Assembly (NCBI GenBank): GCA_963976765.1
Contig: CAXBME010000005.1
Coordinates: forward strand, 1 to 64,000
Length of the DNA stretch: 64,000 nt
Direction of reading: 5' to 3'
DNA from: an uncultured Planctomycetaceae bacterium
GTDB taxonomy: Bacteria; Planctomycetota; Planctomycetia; Planctomycetales; Planctomycetaceae
Shown: in pieces, positions 1-18,427 of the stretch
Numbering within the stretch: the stretch's first letter is position 1
Layout of the letters: every line of letters starts with the position of its first letter
Position numbers and translations under genes: made by a program
Notes under the pieces: generated by a model
The model's database searches: none
Told to the model about the DNA's origin: nothing
What the model saw: the letters and a program-made list of their open reading frames with translations, nothing else

Positions 1-40
1 CCTTACCCAACCCGAACTCTCATAAGCCGTGGTACAGAAA

Positions 41-418
41 TCAGGGGCACTCCACTTCCTCCAGGATGCGTTGAAAATCCTGGCCATGCAGCGAGCACAC
101 TTGGTCGACTTCTGTCGGCCCGGATTCAATGCGATGCCGATCGGCAACTTCCTGCTCGGGCGCCAGAACCGATCGTCATGCACGTCCCCGGCGATGACCC
201 AGACCGCTCAAGCCGGAATGATTAAACCGAGCGATCCACTCCTGGCACACGCGACGAGCCAGACCAGCCGCCACGACTACCGCAGGCGCCGTCCAGCCAT
301 CCATCGCCAGGATGACGATGCGGATTCGCCGAACCCGTTCCGCACTTTTTTCACACCGCTCCAGCCAAGTCAATGCCGACACCGGCAAATGAAACTCAAC
401 CCGCATCATCACCACCAT
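41..418 (-). pseudogene. IS630-family transposase N-terminal HTH remnant with in-frame stop
   Basis: ORF 418-176 (RIRIVILAMDGWTAPAV...VCQEWIARFNHSGLSGL) resembles an IS630 winged HTH. Reading through the TGA at 176-178 continues in frame as RSVLAPEQEV...ESGPTEVDQVCSLHGQDFQRILEE to a stop at 41-43. No DDE domain is present. Confidence 0.7.
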
Positions 419-512
419 GTCATCAGAATGGCGGTGTTATGATCATTCTTCTATTTCCGGAATTGAAGCCGTACCTTGGGCAATGCTTTGAGGAAGTTCA
501 GAAGGGCTCTGT

Positions 513-920
513 GTGCGTCGTGGAAAGCCTCAGAAAGGACTGCCGACAAACCTTGAGCCTCAGTTTGGCAAGATCATCAAGAGAGCAGGCCTGAAGCCGT
601 GGCCGAAAGTCTTTCACAATTTGAGAGCGTCGAGAGAGACTGAGCTGGCCGATGAATACCTGATTCAAGTGGTCTGTGACTGGATTGGAAACTCACCACA
701 AGTTGCGAGTTGCCATTATTTGCAGACGACCGAAGAGCATTTCAAAAAAGCGGTGCAGCAACCGGCGGAAACGGGAAGCAAGGGTCTGAACAAATGCACC
801 CATCCAAAAGGAAAACCCCCGGAAATTCCGGAGGTTTCAACTCTGTGCAGACCATTGCGGCGAACAGAAATGGACGATACTGGACTTGAACCAGTGACCT
901 CCACGATGTCAACGTACTGA
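513..920 (+). pseudogene. C-terminal fragment of a tyrosine integrase (relic of an older element)
   Basis: KIIKRAGLKPWPKVFHNLRASRETEL...WIGNSPQVASCHY contains the HxLR box and the catalytic Tyr region. The N-terminal part is missing and the ORF runs into the tRNA fragment. Confidence 0.8.
871..915 (-). mobile_element. att site: duplicated 3' half of tRNA-Val(GAC)
   Basis: Reverse complement ACG-TTGACAT-CGTGG-AGGTC-ACTGG-TTCAAGT-CCAGT-ATCGTCC-A gives the GAC anticodon loop, T-arm and 3' acceptor strand. The D-arm and 5' acceptor strand are absent. It lies between two integrase genes. Confidence 0.88.
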
Positions 921-960
921 AAAACCAGAAATGTGCATATTTCACAGCGATTATTGATAT

Positions 961-1016
961 TTTGGTGATACCTTTTCCCCTAAACTTGTCCAAAAGGTAT
1001 CACCAAAGGGTATCAC
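961..1016. repeat. Perfect 16-bp inverted repeat plus an extra GGTATCAC copy (candidate integrase arm sites or operator)
   Basis: TTTGGTGATACCTTTT (961-976) and AAAAGGTATCACCAAA (992-1007); GGTATCAC recurs at 1009-1016. It lies between the att core and the integrase ATG. Confidence 0.75.
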
Positions 1017-1034
1017 GCAGACAGGGGAACCGGC

Positions 1035-2582
1035 ATGCCACGCAAACAAAAATTGACATACCAGAAGGGGAGTAGTGGGCGTGGTGGGCGGTGGCGCAAG
1101 AAGTATCGCGGGGCCACCTATTATTTCCCCGCTGGCAATGGAAAGACCGACCGTGCAGCCTATGAGCAGGCGCTGGAGCAGTGGTCGCAGAAGAAGGCGG
1201 AAATTGATGCTCAGGTGGTCAAGCCGCACGAGGACGATTACCGAAACGCCATCATCGAGTGGAATGCCGTACTCAACTGGTCGACTCAGCATGGGGACCA
1301 GCGTCAAGCGAAAGTGGCACGAAGCAAGATGAAGGAACTGCAAGCCGGACTGTGTAACTCAAATCCAAGGCCACTTGCATACGGTGACCGGATTACGGAC
1401 ACGTTTGAGCCGTCACCGGCAGATGTTGAAGCAATTGCCGCGGCCGCGAGGATCGATGAAGAAATCGACTTCTCCACTCTTGAACTTCCGACTGGCATTT
1501 CAAGTCTCATCACTCCCAGGCAACAGCATGCTGACGAAACGGGGATGACGGCAGATCAGTTACTGGCGCGACTCTGGCAGGACCGAATCGACTCTGAGTT
1601 GTTGCTCCAGACCGTACCACGGAGTGCGACAGTTGAGGGAAACTACCAGCGGTTCAAAGAATTCAAAGTAGCAGAAGTCGCCGTCAAAGAAATCAGCGCG
1701 GGGCGATACGCCAATCTCATCCGTCACGTTGACGCACTGGTCGATTTTGTCGGTGGCGCAAACCCTGTCACGGTCTTTAACGAACGCGTCTTGACCGACT
1801 ATAGGACCACGCTCCAGGGACGTATTGGGAAAAGTGAAATCAGTGGTAGTTATGCCAAGGACCGACTCGATGCGGCCAAGCAGTTTGTCCGGTGGTTGTG
1901 GCGACAACGTGTGCTCGAAGACCTGCCGCGCGTGATCGACGACAAGCAATTCAATATCAGTGCGTCTCACGGCAAGATTATGACCTTCACGAAGGAAGAA
2001 ATCCGGCAATTGCTTGGGGCGGCCAGAGGCCGGCATAGGTTGCACATCCTGCTCACGCTGAATTCAGCCTTTACCCAGAAAGACATCAGCGACCTGAAAC
2101 ATTCCGAAGTTTGCTGGAAGAAGGGCACCATTTCTCGCAAGCGATCAAAGACCAGTGATGGCGATAATGTACCAGAAGTTACCTACACACTTTGGCCTGA
2201 GACTCTGCAGCTCCTGAAGGAATTCCGGTCGTCCGATCCAGAGCGGCTGCTTGTCAATGAAAACGGAAGCCCGCTGAAAGTTGAGAGTCTTCGCCCAGAC
2301 GGAAAGCTGTACAAGGTCGATAACATTCAACGCAACTTTGCACGCCTATGCAGACGCCTGAAGATTTCCGGCAGATCATTTACTTGTCTGAAGAAGACGT
2401 CAGCAACTCTGCTGCGTGGCGAGGAAAACTACTCAGGCCTCGAAAGCTACTTTCTCGGGCATGCGCCACGGTCAATGGGTGACAAGCACTATTCCGGTGG
2501 CCCGGACGCGTTACTCGCGAAAGCCTTGAAATGGTTGCGTCGCGAGTTGCAGATCGACAAGTGCCTCACGGACATGGACTAG
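1035..2582 (+). CDS. Tyrosine recombinase/integrase with atypical catalytic boxes
   Basis: 515 aa: arm-binding-like N-terminus (GGRWRKKYRGATYYF), core-binding helices, LLTLNSAFTQKDISDL (box I), RKRSKT, FTCLKKTSATLL (box II), FLGH...DKHY. Adjacent to the att site. Confidence 0.85.
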   Translation: MPRKQKLTYQKGSSGRGGRWRKKYRGATYYFPAGNGKTDRAAYEQALEQWSQKKAEIDAQVVKPHEDDYRNAIIEWNAVLNWSTQHGDQRQAKVARSKMKELQAGLCNSNPRPLAYGDRITDTFEPSPADVEAIAAAARIDEEIDFSTLELPTGISSLITPRQQHADETGMTADQLLARLWQDRIDSELLLQTVPRSATVEGNYQRFKEFKVAEVAVKEISAGRYANLIRHVDALVDFVGGANPVTVFNERVLTDYRTTLQGRIGKSEISGSYAKDRLDAAKQFVRWLWRQRVLEDLPRVIDDKQFNISASHGKIMTFTKEEIRQLLGAARGRHRLHILLTLNSAFTQKDISDLKHSEVCWKKGTISRKRSKTSDGDNVPEVTYTLWPETLQLLKEFRSSDPERLLVNENGSPLKVESLRPDGKLYKVDNIQRNFARLCRRLKISGRSFTCLKKTSATLLRGEENYSGLESYFLGHAPRSMGDKHYSGGPDALLAKALKWLRRELQIDKCLTDMD

Positions 2583-2894
2583 GCCCAAGAGTAGCCCCTG
2601 AACTCCGGAAGCCAGCTTTCGAGGTGCTATTGCGCATTCGCGGCGCAATCTTCGCTCTGTTCCTGTACGGCTTGCTTCGCCCAGAATCGTACTGTTCGGG
2701 CCATACAGCCTCGATCGGAAGCGTCGAAGCGCTGGATGTTGTGGCGGGGTCTCAGGGGACAGGTAATTTCGAATTTCGTTCTCTCGAATTGAACGACTTC
2801 TTATGTCCACCAAACACGGATCAGAGCTCAAATTGTTGTTTGGATTTGAATCCTCCGGCTATTACTGGTGAAATAGACATTTGGGGGCAACGCA

Positions 2895-3527
2895 GTGGAA
2901 GCATCAACCGGGACGCTGGAAATACTGCTCGGCCAGTTACGTGAGGGTGACGATTCCGCTCGCGACGCCATCATCAATCACTCCTGCGAACGACTGCGAA
3001 CTCTCGTTCGGCAGCATTTGCGGCGAGAGTCAGACCTCAAATACGTCGAACAGACTGACGACGTGCTGAACCGTTCGATGCTTCGCTTGCACAAGGCGCT
3101 GTCTGAGATGAAGCCGGAGAACAAACGCGCATTCATCGGGCTAGCAAGTCTCTATGTGCAGCGGGAGCTGACTGACTTGTTCCGCAAGCACTTTATTGGC
3201 CACGGGGTTGGACGTCACCAAAAACTCGACAGCCAGTCTTCTGATGAGGACGCTATCGGTCCAATCCATTTGGCAACGGCGAATGGCCCTGGACCAGGCA
3301 CGCAACTGGTCCAGGCTGAATTGATCGAGAACCTAGGCGCTGCCGTCGATGCACTTCCCGAAGACGAACGCGAGGTCTTTCGGTTGTACTACTATCAGGA
3401 CCTTCCCCAGCAGGAGATTGCTGATCTGCTTCAGATCGACGTAAGGACAGTCAAGAGACGGTGGCGTCGCGCGCGTGAGGGGTTGCAGGGACTGTTGGGC
3501 GATGGCAGTCAGGAGTCGCCCGAGTGA
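2895..3527 (+). CDS. ECF sigma-70 factor (STK-associated type)
   Basis: Region 2 (TDDVLNRSMLRL) and region 4 (LPEDEREVFRLYYYQDLPQQEIADLLQIDVRTVKRRW). Its stop overlaps the kinase GTG. Confidence 0.9.
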   Translation: MEASTGTLEILLGQLREGDDSARDAIINHSCERLRTLVRQHLRRESDLKYVEQTDDVLNRSMLRLHKALSEMKPENKRAFIGLASLYVQRELTDLFRKHFIGHGVGRHQKLDSQSSDEDAIGPIHLATANGPGPGTQLVQAELIENLGAAVDALPEDEREVFRLYYYQDLPQQEIADLLQIDVRTVKRRWRRAREGLQGLLGDGSQESPE

Positions 3528-5557
3528 GTGACGACCACATTGAAGACCTTCTGGACCTCTGGGAAGATCAAGCCGACGCGGGGGAGTTGCCGTCAATCGA
3601 CGCGTTTATCGCAGAGCACTGTCGCAACGATTCGCCCGAGGTTGTCGATCGGTTCCGGCAGCGAGTCCGGAAGCTTGATGCAGTCGATGCCGCACTTGGA
3701 GTCGGACAATCGCCGCCGGCACCGACTCTACGTCTCACGGAAGACGCGGAGCCGTTCGACGGTTACCGGCTTGTATCCAGGATCGGTTCCGGCTCATTTG
3801 GTGAAGTCTGGAGTGCGAACGCTCCGGGTGGGTTCCAGATCGCTTTGAAATTTATCCAATGTTCCTCAGAGGCCGCTCGCGTTGAGCATCGGTCTCTGAA
3901 AGTGATCAAGAGTGTGCGGCATCCGAATCTGCTCGCCCTGTTCGGTGCGTGGAGTCAGCACGGATACCTGATCATCGCCTCCGAACTTGCGGAATCCACA
4001 CTGCTCGACCAGTTCCGAGATTCGGTCGATCGAGGCCTCGATGGAATACCACGTTCGGAACTACTTCAGTACATCGCAGACGCGGCCAGTGGGATCGATC
4101 ATCTTAACCGGAATACGTCCGCCAGCACGCACGGCATTCAACACCGCGACATCAAACCGGCCAACCTGTTTCTGACGGGAGGCCGTGTCAAAGTCGGCGA
4201 CTTCGGCATCGCCCGACCGCTGATGGGAGCCATCGACGAACAAACGGGGCGCATGACGATGAGTTTCGCGCCGCCCGAAGCCTACGGGAAACAACTCGCA
4301 AACACCTCCGACCAGTATTCACTCGCACTGACATACGTCTTCCTTCGGACCGGCAGACTACCGTTCTCTGGCTCACCACTGCAGGTTATGGCTCGAAAGC
4401 AGGACGGCTCTGTAGAGCTTTCTTATCTGACTCCTGGCGAACGCCCGATCCTGATGAAGGCGTTGTCTGCCAATTCGTCTAAGCGCTACGAGTCGTGCAG
4501 CGACTTCGTCAAGAAGCTGCAAAACGTCGGCCAGAGCGACGATCAGCCACAGAACAAACTGAGTTCCAAGATGCGGCGGTATGGTCTCGCCATAACCGCA
4601 GTTGTCTTGCTCGCGATCGGAATGATTGCGACTGTGATCCTGAACACCTCAGAGACCAGCGAGGATGTCGACAATAGTGTCGCCACAGCAGGCCCGCCGG
4701 AAGTTGAAAGCCATTCCAGTCCCCCTGCATTCATCGAAACACTGAAATCGTGGCCGGACATGATACGAATCGTCCGCACCGGCGAAACGGCATACGACGA
4801 GTTTCAGGACCATATCACTATTCCGATCAGACTTTCGGTCGACTCGGACCAGTACCGTGACTGGACACAGCGTCTCATCAGTGAATCACAGGCGACTGCC
4901 GAACATGGTGACGACGTCGTCATGCAAGGAGGAATTCCCGTTTTTGCTGGCTTGAGACATACACCGTCACTCCTGACCGATTGGCACATGGTTAAGGATG
5001 CTGCGGCCCTGTTTGGTCCCGAGTACACTGACTCAGGGGATCGAGTCACGATCTGGTTACTCGCACGGCAGGATGCTGAGGAAACCACAATTCGAGCGAC
5101 ACCCTTTTCGACCGCTGTTGAGCGGCAACACCTAAGCTTTCTGGATTCATCGATCTCTATGAAGGTCGTGATCCACGACGTAAACGGTGAGGCAGTTGTT
5201 GAAGACCTCATCGCGATCAAATGGGAGAAGTGGGGATTAATGAGCCCGCATGAGTCTGAGCAAGTGCTTCCACTGTTGATTGAGACCGCCCTCAGACGGC
5301 CTGAGGGTAAACCAGCAGGCACGTATTATAGCCTGTCTGGTTTTCTCGAAAATGCAAAGCCAGAATTCGGGCCCAGGTACGAAAATTTTGAGGTCAACAT
5401 TCTGTTAGCTCCGTTTGCGCACAAGCTGACATCAAACGGCTCTCGGATGCATCTCTACTGCTCGCCATATCGAGACCTGCTGATTCGGCTTCCAGCGACA
5501 CGAGACGATTTCGATCGAACGGCCGACGTCCAATTTCGGATTACTCGGGAAGAATAA
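3524..5557 (+). CDS. Membrane Ser/Thr protein kinase
   Basis: IGSGSFGEV, IALK, HRDIKPAN, DFG, FAPPE, DQYSLA motifs; one TM segment (YGLAITAVVLLAIGMIATVIL); extracytoplasmic C-terminus. Confidence 0.92.
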   Translation: MSDDHIEDLLDLWEDQADAGELPSIDAFIAEHCRNDSPEVVDRFRQRVRKLDAVDAALGVGQSPPAPTLRLTEDAEPFDGYRLVSRIGSGSFGEVWSANAPGGFQIALKFIQCSSEAARVEHRSLKVIKSVRHPNLLALFGAWSQHGYLIIASELAESTLLDQFRDSVDRGLDGIPRSELLQYIADAASGIDHLNRNTSASTHGIQHRDIKPANLFLTGGRVKVGDFGIARPLMGAIDEQTGRMTMSFAPPEAYGKQLANTSDQYSLALTYVFLRTGRLPFSGSPLQVMARKQDGSVELSYLTPGERPILMKALSANSSKRYESCSDFVKKLQNVGQSDDQPQNKLSSKMRRYGLAITAVVLLAIGMIATVILNTSETSEDVDNSVATAGPPEVESHSSPPAFIETLKSWPDMIRIVRTGETAYDEFQDHITIPIRLSVDSDQYRDWTQRLISESQATAEHGDDVVMQGGIPVFAGLRHTPSLLTDWHMVKDAAALFGPEYTDSGDRVTIWLLARQDAEETTIRATPFSTAVERQHLSFLDSSISMKVVIHDVNGEAVVEDLIAIKWEKWGLMSPHESEQVLPLLIETALRRPEGKPAGTYYSLSGFLENAKPEFGPRYENFEVNILLAPFAHKLTSNGSRMHLYCSPYRDLLIRLPATRDDFDRTADVQFRITREE

Positions 5558-5606
5558 TCTGCTTTTGCTGCTATCCGTTATCGGTAACGTCACACCACCT
5601 TGACTA

Positions 5607-5645
5607 TGAAAGAAACGGGACCCGGTCATCGTGACTCAGGTCCCG
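5607..5645 (-). terminator. Intrinsic terminator for the 5660-6523 gene
   Basis: Minus strand reads CGGGACC-TG-AGTCA-CGA-TGACC-G-GGTCCCG followed by TTTCTTTC, about 15 nt after the stop. Confidence 0.6.
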
Positions 5646-5659
5646 AATGCTCCATCACA

Positions 5660-6523
5660 CTACAGAGCCCAGTAGCGCTCAACGTTCAGGAGACCTTGCT
5701 CGTGGAATGGCTCGATCCGGTTTGGAAGCGGCAATTGCGTCACCGCTCCAGACCACATTGCATCTCCATCTGCGACCACACATTCGTCGTCCAGGTAAAG
5801 ATCGGTCAAAGGGAGGCCAGCGTCCATTAGGTCTGATATCACGTCCTCAACGAACCAGGGACCACTCATCAAGACTGTGGATTTCAGGTCGATTTTGTCA
5901 AAGTAAACCAAATCACCTTCCCAGACGCCACACCGTCCATTTGGGAAGGTGCCAAGCCTGGCTCCATCCGGAGCCACCGCTAGTATGACGCTGAAATCGT
6001 CGCAGCGATAAACCACAGCCGGACGGACGACTCCATCTTCCATCCGGACGTTGATGCGGTGGAAGTCCAGTTTATCCCTTCCGATTAGTGAGCTGCGCCA
6101 GACGACTTCGTTATGAAGTAAGTCCCGAAGCTGACGCGGCGTACATCGCTCAAGTCCGAATGCACCATCGAGATTTTGACTCAGCGACTCAACCTCCCAT
6201 CCCGGTCCCTTTCCGTGGAACTGAGCCGCCAGGAAATGCACCGGCAGTTCTCCTTGCCAGCATTCGTCACACGGCGTGTCAAACGCCTCATGACGCTGGA
6301 CGTCACTTCCTGCCGTTGAATCGGCGTCCTCGATTGTCTGATCCAGAACATCCGATTCAGTGACCAGCATCATTCCCGAGCACTGCGCCAATGATGCGAT
6401 CTCCTCGAAATCGTCATTCACCGCATCGAGCGGCACATCCACTATGGCCTCCAACGTCCGCCGCTCGATGCGGATGATCCTCAACTGACGCGTGGTTGCC
6501 GTGCTCTCGATAGTTTTGATCAT
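5660..6523 (-). CDS. Hypothetical acidic protein
   Basis: Long open frame, probable start MIKTIES with AGGA upstream, followed by a terminator. No recognisable motif. Confidence 0.65.
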   Translation of the reverse strand: MIKTIESTATTRQLRIIRIERRTLEAIVDVPLDAVNDDFEEIASLAQCSGMMLVTESDVLDQTIEDADSTAGSDVQRHEAFDTPCDECWQGELPVHFLAAQFHGKGPGWEVESLSQNLDGAFGLERCTPRQLRDLLHNEVVWRSSLIGRDKLDFHRINVRMEDGVVRPAVVYRCDDFSVILAVAPDGARLGTFPNGRCGVWEGDLVYFDKIDLKSTVLMSGPWFVEDVISDLMDAGLPLTDLYLDDECVVADGDAMWSGAVTQLPLPNRIEPFHEQGLLNVERYWAL

Positions 6524-6783
6524 TTTGATCGTTCCTACTGAAGCGGGGGATGCATGGATTTCGAATTGGCGACGCTCCCCCGTGGTCGCCATTCATCAGG
6601 CGAAGCTCAGAGTGCAAAGGGGACAGCAATTCAACACAAAATCTGGAAGCACACCGCCGACCACAGCAAAATACGGAAGGTGGAGTCACGCGACGACGCG
6701 TTAGCTGTAAGCAACGCGAGCGACTCGCATCGATTCAGAACGGGCCTCTGGCCGGCAAAAAACTCGAAGGGACTCTTTCACAA

Positions 6784-7067
6784 CAGGTATGCTCGTCGCG
6801 CCTTCCAGTAAGCTGCTACCGGCAGCTCGCGGCTGCCATGAAGCTGGCTAATGGGAGGACAGAGGATTCGTCTGTGCCAACAACTCCCACGGTGACGATG
6901 GTCGTAAGCCTTTACCCAAGAAGCACATGTAGCGCATTCGGATGCGCTGCTCGCCCCAGCGCCAATCTGATAAGCATGGTACAGGGGCGGACTGGTTCGT
7001 GCCCGGCGTTCGCGTCGAGAGCACCTTCCAGTGTCGAAGAGCGAGAGACTTGGAGTCGCAATCGCTG
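6784..7067 (+). ncRNA. Putative structured RNA, copy A (diverged direct repeat of 11305-11586)
   Basis: Collinear with copy B over ~268 nt with one 1-nt indel. Hand count 96/140 and 74/108 identities in two blocks. Differences are mostly transitions and keep helices pairable. The repeat is solid; RNA status is inferred. Confidence 0.55.
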
Positions 7068-7259
7068 ATTGATAATCCCGTCACGTGCTGAGTCGTCACC
7101 CCCTCGCCCAAGGGCAGCGCCGCCCAGCGCCGATCGCGCAGAAGTAAAAATCTGGCAAAAAAGATTGTCCCCTGGGCTCCGTCACTTTCGCTTGAGGTCT
7201 CAGTTCGACCAGGCCGCTGGTCGTGATGTCACCTTTTCGTACAGAGTGAGGAACTAAGA

Positions 7260-7367
7260 ATGAAATCGGAAATCGTTGAAATGACGACGGGGCAAAACGT
7301 GATCGTCAAGTCGTCGTGGCCGAAGAAGAAGCTGGCGGACGTGCATTTGGAACCCGTCACGGGATAA
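7260..7367 (+). CDS. Possible 35-aa small protein MKSEIVEMTTGQNVIVKSSWPKKKLADVHLEPVTG
   Basis: GAGGA RBS 7 nt upstream of ATG 7260. Below the ORF-track cutoff. Confidence 0.35.
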   Translation: MKSEIVEMTTGQNVIVKSSWPKKKLADVHLEPVTG

Positions 7368-7489
7368 ATCGTGGTGGGCTCAATGCGAAGGAAAATTAAG
7401 ATGACTATTACCGCTAAAGGTATGTCATTTTGCGGGTTGATTTCGGCCACGAAGTTGCGGGTTAAACCAGCCACCCAATCCAACATAAC

Positions 7490-7537
7490 TTTTCCCCGAA
7501 CGCCCTACACACTTGCTCTGAGGGCGTTTGGGGAAAA
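7490..7537. repeat. 17-bp inverted repeat upstream of the helicase-RT operon
   Basis: TTTTCCCCGAACGCCCT (7490-7506) and AGGGCGTTTGGGGAAAA (7521-7537), with one G-T pair and a 14-nt loop. Confidence 0.7.
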
Positions 7538-7658
7538 AGAGCATCGACTTACCTCAACACGAGTGGCGGGTTTTGCCCGCGAACTGGCAGGTAAGCGTAG
7601 ACGACGTACTCACCGAGCTAATACTGCATTCCAACTGACGGCAGAAAAGCGGTCCACG

Positions 7659-7841
7659 ATGACGATTACATTTGACGAAGTTGACTGCGACGAAGCTGTC
7701 GCTCAGGTGGCAGGCACCCTTCGCACGTTTACCGGAGCACTGCAGCGCCATCACATGGACGGCACGAGTGGCCTCAATAGAGCTAGAGCAGGATTTATTG
7801 TGTTATCGGTCACAGGTCAATCCGCAAGGAGGCTGAGATGA
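7659..7841 (+). CDS. Possible 60-aa leader ORF coupled to the helicase-like gene
   Basis: MTITFDEVDCDEAVAQVAG...; stop overlaps the next start (ATGA 7838-7841). RBS is weak. Confidence 0.3.
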   Translation: MTITFDEVDCDEAVAQVAGTLRTFTGALQRHHMDGTSGLNRARAGFIVLSVTGQSARRLR

Positions 7842-9334
7842 CGGGTGCAGAAACCCAGCGAAGACACCGGGGAATTACCCTGGTGGCGGAACACCGCTTT
7901 GTGCAATTGCCGCTGGTCACGGCTCAGGATGTCCTGCCAGAACTACGGATTCTACAGACGTCCAGGTACCGGGATGTAAGCGGTCGCGCGGAGTCGGTAT
8001 CACAGGTGAATGCGGACGTCTGGTGTGCGGGGCGGGCGTTGATCGGGTTGGCACCGGCGGCGGTCGCACTCCTGCAGCGGCATGGCTACCAGGCTCACTA
8101 CCAGGACGAGACAGACCGGTCGCTGCCGGAGGCGGCGAAAGGTGCGGTGAGCAAGCGTGGGATTCGGGATTCCGCGTTGCTTTGCTTTGTCTCGGGTAAT
8201 GCACCATGTGGGCTGATTGAGTATCGGGACCGTGAGGTTGACCCTGCATGGATCGTGGCCCAGATCGCCCTCGAATGGCCGGATGCCGAGATCATCGTCA
8301 TCTCGGCGACAATTGCCAATGCAGAGCGACTGGCGGCCTGCCTGAAGCGGTATCTCACTGGTTCACAGGTGGGGATGGCAGTCTCAGACGCGAAGTCAGA
8401 TCGACGTCGCGTGACTGTCGTCACGCCCAGAGAGTCGATCCAGGCGGGAATGCTCCGTGCCGACTTCGTGATCGCCCTCGATGCTGTCGAAGCGGTGGGG
8501 CTTCGCCAACAGGAAGCTCTGTTGCAGCCGATGAAGGCGCGAACATTCGGGCTGATGAAGATCGGCCAACGTCTGTCGCGGTATGAGCGGGACATGATCA
8601 CGGCATCCTTTGGCTTCGAACGGCTGCGAATCCATCGTCATGGTGTCACCGCAAGGCCTGTGACGGTCGTCCAGATTGCCGTTCGCGGCGGCGAACGTGT
8701 GGCGAAGAATCTGAACGTGCCGTCGACAAAACAGCGAGCGATCACACAGCACGGTGTTCGCAACCGGCTGATCTGCAGCATCGCCAAGGCGGTCGAGAGT
8801 CAGAATGCTGAGAAACTACACAGCCTCGTGCCGTGGCAGGGCTGGAGCACGCTCGGACGGGCTCGGACAGTGATCCTTGTGGTGTCGGTCGACCATGCCA
8901 TCCAACTGGCGAAGCGTCTCCCACACTGGGCGGTGCTCGCTGGTCAACACGTCGGCCATTATGGCTGGTCCAACCTGGACGGACTCGTAACAGGGGAGTC
9001 GTTGCGGTCGGTGTGGCGTTCGAATCAGAACGTGATCGTGACATTCGAGGGGTTGCGGCGGGCTGAACTTCAGCGCGTTGGTGTTCTGATTCGTGCCGAT
9101 GGTCTGCCGGGGATTCCTGCACCGCTCGTCGAACATTATGTGAGCGGTAACACAAAGTCACGGCTCGTGGTTATTGATCTCGATGATCGGGATCATCACC
9201 CCCTACTTCGTCAATGGACACAAGATCGACGGGATGCAGCACTGGATGCTGGCTGGACGGTGATTCGGTCATCAGGGCAACCCTACACCGACGTGGACCG
9301 CTTTCTGGACTCCCGGAAGGAGGAGGCACGATGA
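7838..9334 (+). CDS. Degenerate superfamily-2 helicase-like protein (no Walker A or DExH)
   Basis: SF2 motif order is recognisable: GLIEYRDREVD at the motif I position, IIVISATIANAERL (Ia), VTVVTPRES (Ib), VIALDAVE (II), RTFGLM (III), RNRLI..VILVVSVDHAIQL (IV), VIVTFEGL (V), and a C-terminal VVIDLDD..LLRQWTQDRR..GWTV. GGAGG RBS. Confidence 0.65.
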   Translation: MTGAETQRRHRGITLVAEHRFVQLPLVTAQDVLPELRILQTSRYRDVSGRAESVSQVNADVWCAGRALIGLAPAAVALLQRHGYQAHYQDETDRSLPEAAKGAVSKRGIRDSALLCFVSGNAPCGLIEYRDREVDPAWIVAQIALEWPDAEIIVISATIANAERLAACLKRYLTGSQVGMAVSDAKSDRRRVTVVTPRESIQAGMLRADFVIALDAVEAVGLRQQEALLQPMKARTFGLMKIGQRLSRYERDMITASFGFERLRIHRHGVTARPVTVVQIAVRGGERVAKNLNVPSTKQRAITQHGVRNRLICSIAKAVESQNAEKLHSLVPWQGWSTLGRARTVILVVSVDHAIQLAKRLPHWAVLAGQHVGHYGWSNLDGLVTGESLRSVWRSNQNVIVTFEGLRRAELQRVGVLIRADGLPGIPAPLVEHYVSGNTKSRLVVIDLDDRDHHPLLRQWTQDRRDAALDAGWTVIRSSGQPYTDVDRFLDSRKEEAR

Positions 9335-10752
9335 GCTACGAGCGAAGCAACTTCGATTTCACTACGCTGGCCAGAGATGGTGGGCGGACCCCAGACAATT
9401 TCTACAGGCACGATTGCCATCCACTCGGCTGCCTGTATGAGGCCGAGTCTGGCTGCACGCCGGACTTCGACGCAATGACGGACCCGGAGCACCTGATGCG
9501 GGTGTTCGGGCTGCAGCAGGAGTTCGGTGAGAAGGCCGCAGGACCGGACGGCGTACATTATCGCGATCTAGGCCGGGCCGAGGTCGCCGCAGCGATGCGA
9601 GACCTCTCAAGGCGGCTGCGGGAAGCGACGTGGGAGGCTGGTCCGGCGAGGACGACGTCGATCGACAAGAAGTCCGGTAACGGGACCAGGCCGCTACGGC
9701 TGCGGAGCGTCTTTACGGCAGTGGTCAGCAAAGTGCTGCACGACACGATGCAGTCGTTCTGGGACAATCGGCTTCTCGACGGGTGCTGTGCGTACCGACC
9801 AGGGCGTGGACCGCATCGGATGCTCGCCGAGATGCTGTGGACCATGAAGACGACCGACTGCTGGGTGGTCGCTCAGGCGGACATCAAAGACGCCTTCGAG
9901 AATGTGGCTGTCGAGGAAGTCGTGCGGCTTCATCGGGAGCTGCTGGCGTGCGACAGGCTGGTCGGAGTGATTGAAACACTGCTGCGGACGGACATCGACG
10001 GACAGAGGGAACGCACCCGAGGGATCGACCAGGGAAGTGCGTATTCGGTCCACTGCCTGAACGCGCGGCTGCACGAAATACATGACGTACACATCAGGGA
10101 TGATGTTCCCGGTTGGTGGCGGTACTCAGACGATCTGACGTACCTCTGCGCAACCGTGTCCGAAGGCGAGGAGACGCTGCACTGCGTCCGGGAACTGTTC
10201 GGTCCAACAGAGTTTACTCTGAAGGATACGCAGCCGGACGGCGGTGTACCTGTCGGCGATCTGAAACGGGGTGATGCAGTGGACCTGCTTGGGTTCCGAA
10301 TCACTCTGCAGGACGATCGTCTACGGTTCGTACCTGGCCCCACTGCATGGGCCGGACTACGCAGTGGACTCCAGAAGGCTCACGAGTCCTCTGACCCACC
10401 CGAATCCGCACTTCAATGTGCACGGGGGTGGATCATGTCTTACGGGCCTGCCTTTGTGGGTGAAGCGAAGCGGTCGATTCTGCAGGAAGTCCAGTGTGTG
10501 ATGCGTGATCTCGGTTTCCGGGATTGCCTCTCTACTGGGGACTTGCTGGGACGGTCGAGCCAGGCATACCGTCACTGGAGGTCCTGTATTCGCAGGGCAA
10601 AGCCTTCAGCGTTGGGACTGTCCGGTCTGGCCGGTAATCGCTCCGCTCTAACCGGCAACGCTGATCAGGGCAAACGCCACGTTGCGTGCCCGACGTCGGA
10701 GTACGGGGGCGAAGGAACGCCCTCGCACTCTGGCTCTTTTTCGAATTCCTAA
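9331..10752 (+). CDS. Reverse transcriptase, group II intron-like, YSDD
   Basis: RT0 KAAGPDGV; RT1-2 IDKKSGNGTRPL; 2a AYRPGRGPH; RT3 ADIKDAFENV; RT4 GIDQGSAYS; RT5 RYSDDL; RT7 DLLGFRI; thumb RGWIMSYG. ATG 9331 has an AGGAGG RBS and overlaps the helicase-like stop. Confidence 0.93.
   Translation: MSYERSNFDFTTLARDGGRTPDNFYRHDCHPLGCLYEAESGCTPDFDAMTDPEHLMRVFGLQQEFGEKAAGPDGVHYRDLGRAEVAAAMRDLSRRLREATWEAGPARTTSIDKKSGNGTRPLRLRSVFTAVVSKVLHDTMQSFWDNRLLDGCCAYRPGRGPHRMLAEMLWTMKTTDCWVVAQADIKDAFENVAVEEVVRLHRELLACDRLVGVIETLLRTDIDGQRERTRGIDQGSAYSVHCLNARLHEIHDVHIRDDVPGWWRYSDDLTYLCATVSEGEETLHCVRELFGPTEFTLKDTQPDGGVPVGDLKRGDAVDLLGFRITLQDDRLRFVPGPTAWAGLRSGLQKAHESSDPPESALQCARGWIMSYGPAFVGEAKRSILQEVQCVMRDLGFRDCLSTGDLLGRSSQAYRHWRSCIRRAKPSALGLSGLAGNRSALTGNADQGKRHVACPTSEYGGEGTPSHSGSFSNS
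10695..10742 (+). terminator. Terminator-like hairpin overlapping the last RT codons
   Basis: GTCGGAGTACGGGGGCG-AAGGAA-CGCCCTCGCACTCTGGC followed by TCTTTTT. Confidence 0.5.
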
Positions 10753-10771
10753 TTCCAGTCGGGAGTCCACA

Positions 10772-11245
10772 GTGCACGATGATTCAACAAGTAGAGCTTT
10801 TGCGTTAGTCGACTTGGAGGAAAATGTCCCCACTAATGAAACTACTCCAAGCCGAAGACCTGCTCCACTGAAACCGTACGGAGTCATGCAGGAGCAATTG
10901 CGACGCTACGAGGAACTCAAGCTGAAAGAAGCAGAGCTCTGGGAACTGCGACGCGAGATAAAGCACTCGCTTGTAGCGGACTCGAATGACGTTGAGCCCG
11001 GGCCACTATCCGGCGAGCTGAAGTCGTTCGGGTATCGTAATCTGACGCATGCGTCGCTGAAGTATCTCGTAGGCGAGGTCGAAGCGGACAGGATTATCAA
11101 CTCAGTACCAAGGACACCAATACTTCACCTCTACGTCCGGCCCGCTGCGGATGTTTTCACACAGCCCGTCGCGCCTCGCCCGGCCGGGCACCCGCTAATA
11201 CATACGGGGAACACCCGTCCTTTCGCAATAACTTCTGACGACTGA
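10772..11245 (+). CDS. Small hypothetical protein (coiled coil plus VEPGPL motif) downstream of the RT
   Basis: GGGAG RBS before GTG 10772; QEQLRRYEELKLKEAELWELRREIK...VEPGPLSGEL. Confidence 0.65.
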   Translation: MHDDSTSRAFALVDLEENVPTNETTPSRRPAPLKPYGVMQEQLRRYEELKLKEAELWELRREIKHSLVADSNDVEPGPLSGELKSFGYRNLTHASLKYLVGEVEADRIINSVPRTPILHLYVRPAADVFTQPVAPRPAGHPLIHTGNTRPFAITSDD

Positions 11246-11304
11246 AGTGAATCGGAAAGTCAGGCGGAGGAAAATACTGGTCCCGAGTAAGGTAGAGCGG
11301 TCCG

Positions 11305-11586
11305 CAGGTACCTTCAGGTGCCTTCCAGAAAGTCGCTTCCGGCGGCGCGCGGCTGTCACGAAGCTGGCTGACGTGAGGACGCAGGGTTCGACCGCGTACA
11401 CACTGTGCTCGGAGTGGATAGCCGTAAGTCTTTGTCGGGGTAAGACATGCAACGAAGTCTGGGCTCAATCCTCGGCTTCACCAACCTGACAGGCTTGGTA
11501 CAGAGTCGGACCGAATCGTGCTCTGCATGCGCGCAGGAATCACATTCCGGCATTGAACAGCAAGACCTCTGGAGCTGCAGTTGCTG
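11305..11586 (+). ncRNA. Putative structured RNA, copy B (diverged direct repeat of 6784-7067)
   Basis: Shares CAGGTA, GCCTTCCAG, GAAGCTGGCT, GAGGAC, CGTAAG, TGGTACAG and TGGAG blocks with copy A at an offset of ~4520. Stems pair in both copies. Confidence 0.55.
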
Positions 11587-11669
11587 GCCGTCGCAACTCT
11601 GGGCTCAACGCCGGCGAATCCTGCGCGGACCAAGCGCATTCTTGCGGTGCGAGGACGCTGTGGAGTGCG

Positions 11670-14468
11670 TCAGGACGAAGCGGTGGCGAGCACTTCCGCC
11701 TCTTGGAGTTGGGGACTGATGGTCGACCAAAAGTCGTCAAGCGCGACAAACCAGCCAGACACTTCGTCCGTCTCATGTTCTCCGGCGAGCGCGTAGCAAT
11801 CCCGCATGTCTGCTGTGACGGCCTGGGTATCGATCGGCGGTGCATTCTTGTCGCTCAGTACTCGCGAGACGCAGTCCTTGGGTATCCACAGCCGTCCGTT
11901 CAGCCGGTCGATATGCAAGTTCATCGACGAGCCGGTCACAGGCACGGGCTCTGACGTCAATGAGAGATCGTCACTCTTGACGAACTTCTTCATCAGTTCC
12001 ATGAAATGCTCAATCGGACGCTGGCTCCCGGCAGGGGTGAGCAATGTCTCCGCCCTTTGGATGACCGTCGAGTTCACCGCGACTTTTTCCAGCCACTTGG
12101 CCATGTCCCTGAAAATGCGTCGAATTGACGGCTCGCCAGGATAGCTCGATGTCAACGGCGGGGATTGCTGCAGGACATGCCTGAGATACTGTGGCATCAG
12201 CTGCTGCGCGGCACTCACAACTTCGCGACGGATGTAGCGAACATGTTCTCGCGAATGGATGATATGCCATCGGCCCTGCGTCCCCAAAGACCGAACGGCA
12301 TTGCGATTGCCGTTGATGATGACGGAGTCAGTTCGCCGACTGCATACGGCGTCGATCTCGGCTTCCGACCAGGTTCTAATCGGCATGAGGGCAGGCAGAC
12401 TGTGCTTCTCGCAGACGTCGACGATGTCATCAGCGGTCATCTTTGTGCGTCGAGACTTGCCGGGGCATCGAAGACAGCCAAGAGCCTCAGCGGCCGCGAA
12501 CCCTGCGGTCGCCGAACTGCCTTCAATGACGACTGGGTGTCGCGTCGCAAATAACAGACTGCTCAGTAATTGTTCAGCGACGCACGCAGCCACTGCCCAC
12601 AGCAGGGCGACGTCGGCGGCACTCTCCGACAGAATCGGGATGGAGTCCTTATCCAGTTGGTCAGAAAACGGTCGCTCCCAATCGACAGCGGGGACAGACT
12701 GTCCGGTGTCGAAGATTGTCGCCCGATTGGTAGCCTCGCCGTGGAGTCCGAGCGAAAACTGAGGAAACGCAAAGCAGCAACTGTCATCGTGCCACCCGAC
12801 GCGATCTGTGCCACGTTCGCTGACCGGTTCACAGAACTGCAGAGCAATGTCCAATGAATCCCTGGCGATTCTTTGAATGAAAATCAGCGGTCGCTCTGAC
12901 TTACGGTCGGCGAGCAAAGTATCACGGACAACTGGCAGCAGCCCATGCTTGTGGACACGATCACTGTCCAGCACAAAGGGCGTCCTGATGTCGGTTCCGT
13001 GGACCTGCGCCCATCCGGAATAGTAGGTTCGACCGGCGTCTGTTCGGACGACACGTTCCACTCGAACCGTTCCGTTGCAGACTTCTTCTTCCGAGTCCTC
13101 AAAGCACCAGGTTCCCGCTGTCTCAATGATGGCACGATTGTTGATGAACGCCCGGCGGCGGCGAACCGCATGCTGATTGAGTCGGTCAATTCGCGACACC
13201 ACATCGAAGTCATCATGCCGCGAAATCCTCTCCTGCTCCCCTGGCGTCAACCTGAGCCCTGACAGCAGATTCTGCGCATCGAGGTCGTCCAGCGAGGTCA
13301 GCTCGTCGGCAAGGGCGTCCGGCCACGGGACGGCATCTTTGGCCAGCTCGTTGAGCACGATTTTCGACGGCATCCCTCCGGTTTGACGACGCATCTGGCT
13401 CGGAGTGATTGATCGTGGCGAGACAGCTCCATCCGCCGCCACGGCCTGTCGGAACAGTTGGTGATCCCGCTTCGGTCCCCAGAGAATCATCCGGCGAGTG
13501 GGAAGCTGGTCGAACACGTGCTCCGTGGAGAACCGTTCGTCGAGCACGCTGCCAACGATGGGCAATGGGTCCGATTTTTCCCGCAGGTGCCGGAGCTGCA
13601 GCCACAGTGCCACGAGCGGGTCAGCAATCACGAACAAGGCGTCACCAAAATCCTTATGCGGCTTTCCGATCAGATTCAGCAGTGAGGAAACTCCGGACTC
13701 GCGTTTGTCGCGACGGCTTCCACCAATGTTCAACGGCTTGAACAACACATCACCGTTCTCCTGATTGGCATCTCGCCCGATAATCAGCAGTGAGCAAACT
13801 CGGCCGGGCAAGTCGTAGTACGGCACAACAAGCACATCATCCCAGCCTTCGCCCTTAAAAAGTCGACGTGCCCCCGGACCTGGCCCGCGACGCTCTGAAG
13901 ACTTGCCGTTCCGATTGCTGCGATTCCGGACTTCGTACGAGCGTGGGTGAAACAGGTCTTCCACCTCGCGACAGCTCGCTCCCCACACCAGCTTCGCTCC
14001 TTGTTCCTGCCAACGCGGCTCACTCACGAACCGCTCGATCTTGAAGTGCCGTAACAGCGAGTGCAGACCGCCGTTTTTGTCTCTCGCAATGCGCTCAATG
14101 GAGTTGTTCTCGAATCTACTCAGCCGCACTCGCTGATCGATGATCTGGTCGAGATAGACATCAATGGCTTCCTCGCTGGTGTCGTGTGGCAGCACTTCCT
14201 CTTGCCGTAATCGCGCCACCGCTTCGACAACTTCGACTCTCCATACTGCGGCGGCAAACTCGATCGTGTCACCGGCGAACCTGCAACTATGGCAATACAG
14301 CCACTCACTGTTCAGCAGAAAGTCCCGGTAGACCCGCAGTTTCCCGTTCTTGCACAGTGGGCAGTCCACCAACGCAGGCAGACTGATTGCCTCATACGTG
14401 AGCCCCAGATGCGGCAGCAGTTGCGTCCAGGGTACGAGTCGCGACAGTGATTCTACGTTGTTCGACAT
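11670..14468 (-). CDS. Large primase-helicase-like protein (Zn finger, DnaG/TOPRIM-like, DUF927-like), catalytic residues degenerate
   Basis: CPLC...YCHSCRFAGDTIEF Zn-binding domain; VVPYYDLPGRVCSLLIIGR (DnaG core-like); LFVIADPLVAL and MILWGPKRD at the TOPRIM positions; RVGWHDD..FAFP; VIEGSSATAG where a P-loop is expected. Confidence 0.6.
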   Translation of the reverse strand: MSNNVESLSRLVPWTQLLPHLGLTYEAISLPALVDCPLCKNGKLRVYRDFLLNSEWLYCHSCRFAGDTIEFAAAVWRVEVVEAVARLRQEEVLPHDTSEEAIDVYLDQIIDQRVRLSRFENNSIERIARDKNGGLHSLLRHFKIERFVSEPRWQEQGAKLVWGASCREVEDLFHPRSYEVRNRSNRNGKSSERRGPGPGARRLFKGEGWDDVLVVPYYDLPGRVCSLLIIGRDANQENGDVLFKPLNIGGSRRDKRESGVSSLLNLIGKPHKDFGDALFVIADPLVALWLQLRHLREKSDPLPIVGSVLDERFSTEHVFDQLPTRRMILWGPKRDHQLFRQAVAADGAVSPRSITPSQMRRQTGGMPSKIVLNELAKDAVPWPDALADELTSLDDLDAQNLLSGLRLTPGEQERISRHDDFDVVSRIDRLNQHAVRRRRAFINNRAIIETAGTWCFEDSEEEVCNGTVRVERVVRTDAGRTYYSGWAQVHGTDIRTPFVLDSDRVHKHGLLPVVRDTLLADRKSERPLIFIQRIARDSLDIALQFCEPVSERGTDRVGWHDDSCCFAFPQFSLGLHGEATNRATIFDTGQSVPAVDWERPFSDQLDKDSIPILSESAADVALLWAVAACVAEQLLSSLLFATRHPVVIEGSSATAGFAAAEALGCLRCPGKSRRTKMTADDIVDVCEKHSLPALMPIRTWSEAEIDAVCSRRTDSVIINGNRNAVRSLGTQGRWHIIHSREHVRYIRREVVSAAQQLMPQYLRHVLQQSPPLTSSYPGEPSIRRIFRDMAKWLEKVAVNSTVIQRAETLLTPAGSQRPIEHFMELMKKFVKSDDLSLTSEPVPVTGSSMNLHIDRLNGRLWIPKDCVSRVLSDKNAPPIDTQAVTADMRDCYALAGEHETDEVSGWFVALDDFWSTISPQLQEAEVLATASS

Positions 14469-14575
14469 TTCTATCTCCGTACAGGTTGGCTCGTGTTATC
14501 CGTAACATAGTGCAATGATTAATGTGAGTCGACGATGGCTCCCGGAATTGGCACTCCGGCGGACTCGTAGTCACG

Positions 14576-15060
14576 ATGGAGTCAGCGACGTCGCTGGCAC
14601 GCGGCGATTTCGCCTTCTCCGAGTTCGAGCTCGTGGAGACCAGCCAGTACGTTTATGGGCTGTACTGCGAACGGTGCCGAGGCGCCGGGAACTCGTCTGA
14701 GAAGAAGCCGTCACGTCAGCGGTGTCCAGACGGGGACGGTCGACGACCGCGAGTCGACGATTGGAGGCGTTGAGCGTCCAGTCGACGTTGTCCCGCGATG
14801 ACGTAGTGTGGTGGCTGGACTCGGCACTGATTACGACAGGCATGACCGAGATGCTGCTGGAAGTCCGACTGCACGCCATCGCGCAGGGCCGCTACATGCT
14901 CGGAGAGTGCGTCGAGACGATCTATGTCGAGCACTTCCGGCCCGTATGGCTCGCAGCGCCATCGACCAAGCTGCCGCATCGGAACGTGAACCTGTTCGCA
15001 GACCTTAAAACGTGCTGTGGCGAGTCTCGCGCGGAAGCTGTGGCATGTTGCGGTACTTGA
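14576..15060 (+). pseudogene. Possibly frameshifted hypothetical gene
   Basis: Two overlapping protein-like ORFs, 14576-14773 and 14722-15060, in different frames. Confidence 0.25.
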
Positions 15061-15365
15061 AAGGGACGCATGGTCGGCGCCTCGCAGGAGGCCAAGAATG
15101 GGGTCGCTGTCGTGGCTGAGTCGTGTAAGGATTGTGGACTTGATGTCTGAACGTCTAACTCGACCAGTACGATTTGGGGTGTGGAACCTCGGAGTGTCAC
15201 AACTCGGATTGTACCACTCGGTGGCGGCAGCAGGGTTGTAAAATAATGTTTACATTCGGCAGTGCCCGTTCTTCGTCGGAAGTGAGATATCACTGAGGTT
15301 TTTTAGAGGTAACTCTGAATTCTCACGGTAACCATCACTCTGGATTCCATTATTTACCACCACAA

Positions 15366-15434
15366 CCCCCTCTCTCGAAGAGAAAGGGAGAGGGGGCGGG
15401 CTACAGGAGCCCCTCCTACTATCAAAGATAGTAG
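15366..15434. promoter_or_regulatory. Hairpin cluster, candidate replication/transfer origin
   Basis: CCCCCTCTCTC/GGGAGAGGGGG (15366-15396), GGGCT/AGCCC, and perfect CTACTATC-AAA-GATAGTAG (15416-15434), in an AT-richer intergenic stretch before a Rep-like gene. Confidence 0.45.
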
Positions 15435-15588
15435 ATAAGATAACGCCGTTAGATTATGCTGTTCATCCTTCTCGACCATCTACCGATTCACGATAAAACT
15501 TACCCATCTTTCGGAAGTCACTTACGGCACGTTCACAGCGAAGCCGTACGGACTAGGAATGTTGGCGACGCGTCAACAAAATGCATAA

Positions 15589-16707
15589 ATGAGTAGATTT
15601 GTTTACCGTGCTGCGGCAGTGCCGATGCGATACCCTGACCAAGTTCAGCAGGAATCCACGTTGTACGCACTGATGGGTTGGCCGAAGAAGCCTTCCAGCG
15701 CAGCCGAATTTACAATGGAGCTACGAAAGAAACAGGTCGCGTCGAAAGCTGGCGACTTATACGGAATGTGGCAGAACCGCGTCGCGGAGCTGGGCGATGC
15801 CGGTTGGTCCGTCGCTGCGAATACTTCTAAGGGGTTGCGGGACAGGGCGGGAGCCCAACGGTGTCGCCCGACTTTTTTTATTCCGAAAGGGGCGACTGGC
15901 TTCCACGCGAACCAGGCCCGCGGGCGTGAGTCCTTCCGGACCTGCAACCGTACGGCGGTTTGCCCCTTTTGTTACGCTCGCGGGGTGCGTGACCTATGGC
16001 AGCGAGTCGACTTTGCATTGTTCCATGCCCCCGAGGCGCTGGGCCGCCGAGAGACCGAAGCTGCCGTAATTCAGCAACAGATGGAAGATTCGGACGTTTC
16101 TGGCCAGAGCCAAGAGTTACTCCTTGGCACTGACCACGAGTCAGAAAACACAGAGGCCCAAGTTCTCACACAAAACCTGGGTGTGGACCTGGTGTGGTGG
16201 TGGGACCAGCGGCTAGTGGAACCGGACGACGCGAACAACAGCGAGTTGCAGCGACAGTTATTCGACCTCGTTCGAGTAGAATGGCCGGCGATGATGAACA
16301 TGAAAGCGCCGTCGCCGCTCAGCAAGATCACTGGAGGCCTGCAGAGTCTCTCGGTCGAACCGTACACGCGGGATGGGAAGCGGAAGTTCCTGCTGACAAT
16401 TCGCCGGCTGATGATCGCCCCGCGCGGTGGTGTGACCGCTAACACAAATGAGACGATTGCCAAATGCGTCAAGATGGAGATCAAGTTGCTGCGGCAGCCG
16501 ACTCGTAAGCTGGTGGTGAAAGAGTTTGCGAAGCTGATGCGATACCCGACCGGGTTGATGCGGAGCGATGTACCGCTGACCGTGGCTGCATTGCACGCAT
16601 CTAAGTACGAGAACTTTGCCGGACGTGTCTCTTCGTTGCGGCTGCTCAGCACCACGGGCAGCATCCTGGCAGCCAACAAAGAATTGCAGGTACGTGGGGC
16701 TAAATGA
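15589..16707 (+). CDS. Hypothetical protein with a Rep-like Cys motif
   Basis: RC...CNRTAVCPFCYAR resembles the CxxRxCPxCxxR Zn motif of rolling-circle Rep proteins. No HUH motif is visible. Confidence 0.55.
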   Translation: MSRFVYRAAAVPMRYPDQVQQESTLYALMGWPKKPSSAAEFTMELRKKQVASKAGDLYGMWQNRVAELGDAGWSVAANTSKGLRDRAGAQRCRPTFFIPKGATGFHANQARGRESFRTCNRTAVCPFCYARGVRDLWQRVDFALFHAPEALGRRETEAAVIQQQMEDSDVSGQSQELLLGTDHESENTEAQVLTQNLGVDLVWWWDQRLVEPDDANNSELQRQLFDLVRVEWPAMMNMKAPSPLSKITGGLQSLSVEPYTRDGKRKFLLTIRRLMIAPRGGVTANTNETIAKCVKMEIKLLRQPTRKLVVKEFAKLMRYPTGLMRSDVPLTVAALHASKYENFAGRVSSLRLLSTTGSILAANKELQVRGAK

Positions 16708-17101
16708 CAAATAGAGTGATCTGCAACAACGGTGGCTGCGGTGCATCAGCGCAGACGATTGGACAATACAGCCTGTGGTTAACGCCGACATCAGCGGGCG
16801 TGAATTCAACAATGCTTTCTGATACTTCAAGGTGAAACCGGGCATCCATACGGGGCTCCGTTGTTCCCTGACGCTGCTGAAGGTCACCTGTCATTCTGAC
16901 GCGGTTGACGGCGCTGGCCAGCGAGTCGTGGCTGCCAGAGAAAACGGCCCCGACGGATGGAGAGCCAGTGCCATGATTGGCTCTGTGTGGCCGGTGCATC
17001 GGGCGAGAATCCGTACGGTGTCGATGTCACGCGGCGGAATTCTGAGTTCACCAGGACTGAAATGCGTCATCGATCGTTGTAGAATCTCGGACGCTATCTG
17101 A
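16704..17101 (+). pseudogene. Probable disrupted small gene
   Basis: ATG overlaps the previous stop. A protein-like frame DDWTIQPVVNADISGREFNNAF*YFKVKPG... carries an internal TGA and needs a frameshift from the start. Confidence 0.25.
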
Positions 17102-17476
17102 AAACATCCGATTCCTTGAGGAGTAAGCCGGAAAAGACATATCCGACGGCCAGGAGCTGTCACCAACACAATTTGATTGACGCGTGAAGCGTCAGCGTTG
17201 CTTTATCCAAAACCGCCAACCTGAGCCCTCGGGCTCTTGAACGACAGAAGCAGCACTGAAGCCACGTCTCCGTATGGGGGCGTCGGCCGGTGTTGTTCTG
17301 TCGTGCCTCTTGGCGGAGGTTGGATGAGCGGCCTTGGTTCGGCGCCCTCTGCTATGCGCTGACCACTGTGACCTCTTCCTGCCCCGGCCGGAACCCTGTC
17401 TCAGGACGTTGATCGCTCACACTTTTTAGAGCGACGGAATCGCTGAATGCGGTTCCCCTGACAGGAGAACGAACAG

Positions 17477-18325: not shown

Positions 18326-18427
18326 TTCGCGCCGCACATACGCAGCTGCCACAACCAAACTCTGCTTGATCGACAGGTGGAATTCCGTTGTCTGCATATG
18401 AGGTTGGCAAGACAGGAAGACTTAACG

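Follow-up and report, generated by a model that had tools for sequence, protein, structure and literature searches.

A diverged direct repeat around a group-II-like reverse transcriptase module in a probable planctomycete mobile element

Why does a bacterial mobile element carry two diverged, co-oriented copies of a sequence of about 270 nt, one on each side of a helicase-like gene and a reverse transcriptase (RT) gene? In the window, the whole stretch of 64,000 nucleotides of an uncultured Planctomycetaceae bacterium that was analysed (contig CAXBME010000005.1), the repeat (Table 1) had led to the original prediction of an unannotated non-coding RNA of ~270 nt with compensatory changes, co-oriented with the RT. 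This claim is only partly supported. The repeat is mostly non-coding, matches no Rfam family and is predicted to fold into a plus-strand hairpin over its first ~51 nt; no support was obtained for a covarying 270-nt structure, for a link with the RT or for a 3' part (215 nt) conserved beyond the background. The G2L5-like module between the copies is the more interesting result.

Table 1. Features of the window around the repeat and the RT module
Feature	Position	Strand	Remarks
Tyrosine integrase-like gene of the surrounding element	1035..2582	+	
310-aa ORF, no known family	5660..6592	-	divergent from copy 1; absent at the G510 site
Repeat copy 1	6801..7067	+	267 nt
Core of copy 1	6801..6851	+	interrupted hairpin by prediction (z -3.8); likewise a frame of 16 codons with terminal stop
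Radical-SAM gene, upstream region and truncated start	7166..7367	+	longer in G510
SF2 helicase-fold protein, 498 aa	7838..9334	+	no Walker A; stop overlaps RT start
Group-II-like RT, 473 aa, YSDD	9331..10752	+	nested in a mostly YxDN clade fitting the G2L5 description
Degenerate three-hairpin 3' element with T-run	10618..10745	+	within the RT's C-terminal extension; assignment based on position, motif and fold
Small ORF, no known family	10682..11245	+	true start uncertain
Repeat copy 2	11321..11586	+	266 nt; adjoins the primase-like gene, as does the single G510 copy (L160:10431-10697)
Core of copy 2	11321..11371	+	matches in 7/7 contigs start at 11310-11322; three end at 11371
Primase-like gene, 932 aa	11670..14468	-	weak CHC2 zinc finger/DnaG matches; converges on copy 2

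Copies of the repeat and their surroundings

The diverged direct repeat itself was borne out, with 66.5% identity over 269 columns by blastn (6800-7067 vs 11320-11586; E 1.7e-13) and a local score of 216 compared with a maximum of 58.5 across 2000 dinucleotide shuffles. The identities counted earlier by hand were near right, as a global alignment with one gap of 1 nt gives 96/141 on its 5' side and 80/125 on its 3' side. No third copy occurs in the 8.57-Mb genome, and blastn of 398 family genomes added one further full copy of 267 nt, in genome G510 (Table 1), besides five matches of 25-38 nt that were judged to be chance. A truncated copy, consisting of the first ~110 nt, follows a small ORF at locus L007, where three GTAG-type palindromic repeats come after it (L007:2056-2663); locus L006 is identical to the window and so not an independent case. 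A first pattern, 26 nt long, gave four genome hits that agree in the pattern alone and no viral hit, a pattern of the core gave one genome contig (G510) and no viral contig, and model R1 retrieved four matches in 78 sources, all of them already known.

The 5' edge of the repeat is sharp. In all seven contigs aligned, derived from four runs, the match starts at 11310-11322 (in one case at the edge of the sequence compared) and ends at 11371 in three contigs and at 11390 or 11428 in the others. The upstream sequences of these contigs are of at least two kinds; once copy 1 and G510 are included, the unrelated contexts that abut the core on its upstream side number at least four. The 3' part is gone after ~11428 in L007 and one X9 contig. 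A plus-strand gene ends 65-200 nt before the core in copy 2, L007 and G510, and copy 1 has no plus-strand gene immediately upstream. Copy 2 adjoins the primase-like gene on its 3' side, the same position as in G510, which shares the sigma, kinase and primase-like genes with the window and lacks window 5630-11320, so that its copy sits between convergent genes. In G510, the element is thus present without the RT module of the window; a distant helicase-like/RT pair lies ~4 kb from the repeat copy on the opposite strand.

The surroundings of the repeats, which also include an ECF sigma factor and a kinase-like ORF, appear to be an integrative element. As for a P4-like origin beside the primase gene, no repeat copy lies near 13 primase-like matches, which are distant (30% identity). 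The 372-aa ORF at 15589-16707, which matches no family, contains a CxxC-like cluster and is conserved (47%) next to the primase-like gene of G510, is possibly a replication or transposition protein. The palindromic segment of ~145 nt at 7423-7567, 90% identical to an unrelated G516 site and with loose contig ends at both edges, is likely a small mobile insertion, which makes the ORF at 7371-7841 doubtful. Relatives of the small ORF follow the RT in L007, L013 and L023/L024 and lie near the module in L008, L080 and L103. MerR-type HTH and ParB-like genes recur upstream of the module (L080, L103, L110, L136-L138, L141), often with a primase-like gene, and a CRISPR-like array with a period of ~73 nt starts ~170 nt past the RT stop at L010:2305-3800.

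A short constrained core in a probably drifting segment

One ORF spanning the repeat was ruled out by 1-nt indels and stops, and beyond base 51 the sequence is taken as non-coding on account of 1-nt indels and the absence of codon bias there. An Rfam scan gave no hit at gathering thresholds over the 64 kb and none at E<=10 over 6500-11800, ARAGORN listed neither tRNA nor tmRNA, a sigma-70/terminator scan marked nothing at copy 1 or copy 2 and no upstream promoter region is conserved across the copies. The 18 sequencing runs listed include no RNA run, a result that has no bearing on expression.

The helices proposed from the two window copies were compared with G510, which played no part in deriving them. 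The motifs of the first helix lie where they had been placed, and helices 1 and 2 are paired in 43 of 45 cells over copy 1, copy 2 and G510, with four one-sided and zero two-sided changes and an A-A mismatch in copy 1; a 10-mer held to be invariant differs in G510 and L007. Helix 3 (7004-7017 vs 11523-11536), for which a double change had been claimed, is interrupted by an A-C mismatch in copy 2 and once more in G510, where one of the three pairs of helix 4 (GGG/CCC vs GAG/CTC) and two of the six of helix 5 (TTCCAG/TTGGAG vs TTCCGG/CTGGAG) are broken as well. Overall, 91.7% of the 28 proposed pairs are formed over the three copies, G510 keeping 23 and breaking 5, and their covariation score was reached by 214 of 500 shuffles, at the low power of only three full copies. 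The consensus fold of these copies is unremarkable over the whole length (z -0.75, SCI 0.56, 150 column shuffles) with an unfavourable covariation term of +4.0, and the single-copy folds reach z -1.9, +0.6 and +1.2. The signal resides in columns 1-62 (z -2.2, 5/150 shuffles, SCI 0.88), as compared with z -0.5 for the tail beyond them, where no helix of more than 4 bp is compatible with all three copies.

The divergence of the repeat is at background level. Copy 2 and G510 share 68.8% identity; the 204 fourfold sites of the neighbouring primase-like gene reach 70.1%, and the values for the sigma and kinase genes are 80-83%. Invariant columns number 141 of 263 with 139 expected under uniform rates, and the tail identity of 66.5% falls within the 63-75% of four other shared spacers. 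The background divergence itself is uneven, since the spacer upstream of sigma is 99% identical. Conservation above the neutral background was not found for the whole 267 nt and was reached only in the first 50 columns.

That the whole ~267 nt constitute one structured non-coding RNA of the element family, with a loose connection to the RT or none, is unlikely on these data. Such an RNA would account for the nearly constant copy lengths (267/266/267) and the few indels, with 2 gap openings per 87 mismatches between copies 1 and 2 where ~6 are expected from the four other spacers (16 gap openings for 227 mismatches), as well as for the sharp 5' edge in the seven contigs, the 23 pairs kept by G510 and the short invariant blocks scattered along the tail. 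It is at odds with the whole-length and single-copy folds, the covariation term, the background level of divergence, the lack of a conserved upstream promoter region and the truncations in L007 and X9. As three full copies provide low power, the whole-length RNA is weakened rather than refuted by these results; the 3' ~215 nt have likely drifted.

The first 51 nt alone are conserved above background and are likely a small plus-strand RNA hairpin. Of the first 50 gap-free columns, 38 do not vary among the three copies (binomial p 7e-4), and the same plus-strand hairpin is the minimum free energy structure in four of four copies. The minus strand of the core folds poorly in copy 2 and G510, in support of the plus-strand call for the 5' hairpin. 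Compared with shuffles, only copy 1 is more stable (z -3.8; the others -0.6, +0.95 and -0.6), the proposed helix within the core shows zero two-sided changes, and breaks of one pair occur in G510, in copy 1, in L007 and in one X7 contig. The hairpin lacks a following T-run and is absent from the output of the terminator scan.

A codon-like bias in the core is left unexplained by the hairpin. Counted by hand, in a window and phase picked after seeing the data, 9 of 16 third positions are variable as compared with 4 of 32 first and second positions (Fisher p 0.004; ~0.012 after three phases), and in 8 of the 9 variable third-position columns the change is synonymous. The core may thus be a short frame of 16 codons and a stop, which would serve as leader peptide or as a C-terminal cassette that lacks a start, with the hairpin incidental, a reading of low probability. 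The stop is present in three of four copies (TAA/TGA/TGA), and the match of three contigs ends exactly at its last base, as this reading would have it. On the other hand, the stop is lost in L007 and one X9 contig, the start codon is not conserved, with the upstream frame open for 5-30 codons, and in X13 a stop interrupts the frame and a canonical start is absent. Furthermore, no host gene ends in the core peptide, the best score elsewhere in the genome being 37 as compared with 75-87; for this reason an attachment site that restores the end of a host gene was rejected.

Both copies could also be functionless remnants, with the identity of the core due to recent gene conversion, in line with the neutral expectation for the overall invariants and a runs test p of 0.10. 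This is barely credible given the conservation of the core over four upstream contexts and several runs, and conversion would yield neither the third-position bias nor the shared fold.

The account that is tentatively preferred, at somewhat less than even confidence, regards the repeat as a backbone segment with a short constrained hairpin, which is present twice as the G2L5-like module brought its own copy. The two copies would be homologous non-coding segments of the integrative element, in which the 51-nt hairpin works and ~215 nt have drifted. To judge from its position, the hairpin may act in cis as a signal where a variable cargo region has its fixed edge, and would there most likely end or protect the transcript arriving from the upstream cargo. 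Copy 1 would have come from a related element along with the helicase-like/RT module; by this origin the flanking layout would be historical, and the copies neither long terminal repeats (LTRs) nor the dedicated RNA of the RT.

The reverse transcriptase, its partner and a 3' element

What, then, is the module? A profile from 29 RT relatives matched 63 of the 398 family genomes at E<=1e-50 and gave 108 loci scoring >=200 bits, of which 96 are non-redundant; the related-locus search of genome or viral contigs contained no RT relative. Simon & Zimmerly (2008) characterized G2L5 by a DD-to-DN change, an N-terminal extension of ~500 aa and no RNA structure, and considered it probably inactive, assigning no fold to the extension in the available text (PMC2602772). 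Examples from Gimesia maris are placed in transposons in the accessible part of the myRT paper (PMC8934634). The present module fits the G2L5 description, on which its proposed membership is based. Domain 5 of a group II ribozyme is absent by Rfam from the window and seven related loci, the extension corresponds to a separate, overlapping gene of 498 aa, and DN occurs in 59 of 92 RTs, to which the YSDD of the window does not conform. As regards the domain X maturase motif of G2L5, the match to TIGR04416, at 96.7 bits far under the cut-off of 300, reaches position 270 of 353 in the window and 333-343 in two relatives. Named relatives of both module proteins are planctomycetes.

In the RT tree, a basal DD group, mostly with a C-terminal extension of ~150-220 aa, stands beside a DN group with DD on about six branches. 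The YSDD subclade of the window is nested among DN relatives (local support 0.77), which suggests a reversion to DD.

The partner gene lies upstream of the RT in 69 of 76 loci with at least 1 kb of flank, by a profile built from these same loci, and is fused to it in five (L009, L091-L093, L102). Its structural model (pLDDT 89) has two RecA-like domains with XPB and UvsW as best matches (E about 1e-13 to 1e-11, TM 0.27-0.36; Atlas 0.96); the G2L5 extension thus models as a degenerate SF2 helicase fold. A Walker A motif (GxGK[TS]) occurs in none of 53 partner sequences, and a DExH/D string appears anywhere in 9 of the 53 and at motif II in none of the 14 listed; by the missing Walker A, the partner is likely ATPase-dead. 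In a mainly open-access body of literature, no paper that connects G2L5 with an SF2 fold or with a 3' RNA element was listed, and the partner gene may already be recorded in the G2L neighbourhood tables of PMC8632793 or Toro et al. (2019).

In G510, a radical-SAM, helicase-like and long RT cassette is inverted at a site matching window 2748 (L160:2496-7425), with the RT frame crossing the junction, which suggests that the helicase-like/RT module moves. A second helicase-like and RT pair of the window's own genome (L003:13200-17218, G000:C27), with YVDD and a 641-aa open frame, has integrase fragments and a 49% relative of ORF 15589-16707 in its vicinity, and no repeat copy.

The clade has an RNA-like element of its own. 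A C-T-(N)-C-C-G loop was found within 120 nt past the RT core in 54 of 82 loci, the 54 being selected on the loop alone. Of the pairs that flank it, the second is Watson-Crick in 42 of the 54, with four pair types; where the motif occurs within the coding sequence of RTs, as a control, this holds for 44 of 200. The hairpin version occurs in 59 of 82 loci, as compared with a shuffle expectation of 16.8 and a reverse-strand count of 18. Past the first hairpin come two others, in many cases with a T-run. In 16 loci of one subtype, hand-picked from 51 candidates with 8 dropped by hand, the first two helices beat all 500 shuffles on three of five measures, a result that relatedness can inflate. RNAalifold gave no structure because of poor alignment, and covariance model R2, itself poorly aligned and weak, with three matches in 51 sources and none significant in window 1-20000, did not find 10618-10745, which folds with z -2.9 and a weak first hairpin. 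In several related pairs homology stops 70-140 nt past the first hairpin, which may be the end of the module or merely a terminator.

The element (e.g. L013:1077-1187, L081:11157-11267) keeps a fixed distance after the RT core, also inside a C-terminal extension or fusion, and its minus-strand loop reads GRA/GRNA. Loci L108 and L109 have an 8-nt tandem repeat of variable number between RT stop and 3' element, and spacers after the RT stop are T-rich in several relatives (32% T vs 22% further downstream, 15 loci). As the RNA signal of the RT family, the three-hairpin element is a better candidate than the 267-nt repeat; at 10618-10745 it would be the cis RNA bound by the RT and its ATPase-dead SF2 partner.

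Could the repeats be templates or targets of the RT, with the DD-regained subclade recognizing the core by a loop that resembles the one in the first hairpin of the clade? The co-oriented copies flank the module, YSDD is nested among YADN relatives, variable sequence adjoins the 5' edge of the core, and the core carries C-T-W-C-C-G on top of an alternative 5-bp stem in which one change is two-sided, a motif short enough to occur by chance. Yet the element exists in G510 without this module, and a repeat copy accompanies only the window's own among 96 non-redundant RT groups; the other 95, other DD members included, have none, in a survey in which many loci are short (76 with at least 1 kb upstream) and remote copies could be missed. 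In addition, the copies are 33% diverged, unlike fresh LTRs, their differences involve all bases with no adenine-specific pattern, and the core is unscored by the weak model R2. This use of the repeats is highly unlikely. Only slightly less doubtful is a wider proposal, by which the DD-regained G2L5 lineage and its ATPase-dead SF2 partner would form a new RT-RNA system of planctomycete integrative elements that recognizes UCC-loop hairpins, in its own 3' element and in the repeat core, and copies or inserts cargo beside them.

Significance and comparison with known systems

No function has been assigned to G2L5 RTs since 2008, when they were taken as probably inactive, their 500-aa extension lacked an explanation and an associated RNA was absent. 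Three testable handles arise: the extension as a predicted degenerate SF2 helicase fold, a covarying RNA-like element fixed after the RT core, and several sublineages, including that of the window, which appear DD-regained and can be compared with their DN relatives. The 267-nt repeat is of lesser weight unless shown to be a transcript or an RT substrate.

DRT2 systems have an RNA of a few hundred bases next to the RT gene, and the repeat resembles them and retrons as a structured stretch of such a size adjoining an RT gene. Unlike here, where 95 of 96 RT groups are without a copy and G510 has a copy without the module, their RNA accompanies the RT family-wide; furthermore, the RT of the window is group-II-like and neither of the UG nor of the retron type. 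As LTRs, the copies should be near-identical, whereas their identity is 66%, and no comparable flanking repeat occurs at the other loci scanned. With group II introns the module shares the RT similarity to TIGR04416, below the cut-off, and no Rfam intron match occurs in the window or the seven related loci. Read on the minus strand, the first hairpin of the clade resembles the target hairpin of diversity-generating retroelements (DGRs), in that its loop is GRA or GRNA and its stem GC-rich. In the available descriptions the DGR hairpin has a GRNA loop on the sense strand and a stem of 7-10 bp beside VR (PMC3240598, PMC4372165), whereas here the loop is antisense and the upper stem comprises 3-6 bp; a TR/VR pair differing at adenines is absent, and neither copy lies within a conserved ORF.

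The closest likeness is to G2L5, with a group-II-like RT, no ribozyme match, the DD-to-DN change in most relatives, an N-terminal partner of ~500 aa, planctomycete relatives and a mobile-element context. Unlike G2L5 as described, the RT of the window has YSDD and its partner is a separate gene, and whereas the accessible text of PMC2602772 reports neither an RNA structure nor a fold of the extension, the present clade combines an SF2-like model of the partner with a three-hairpin 3' element.
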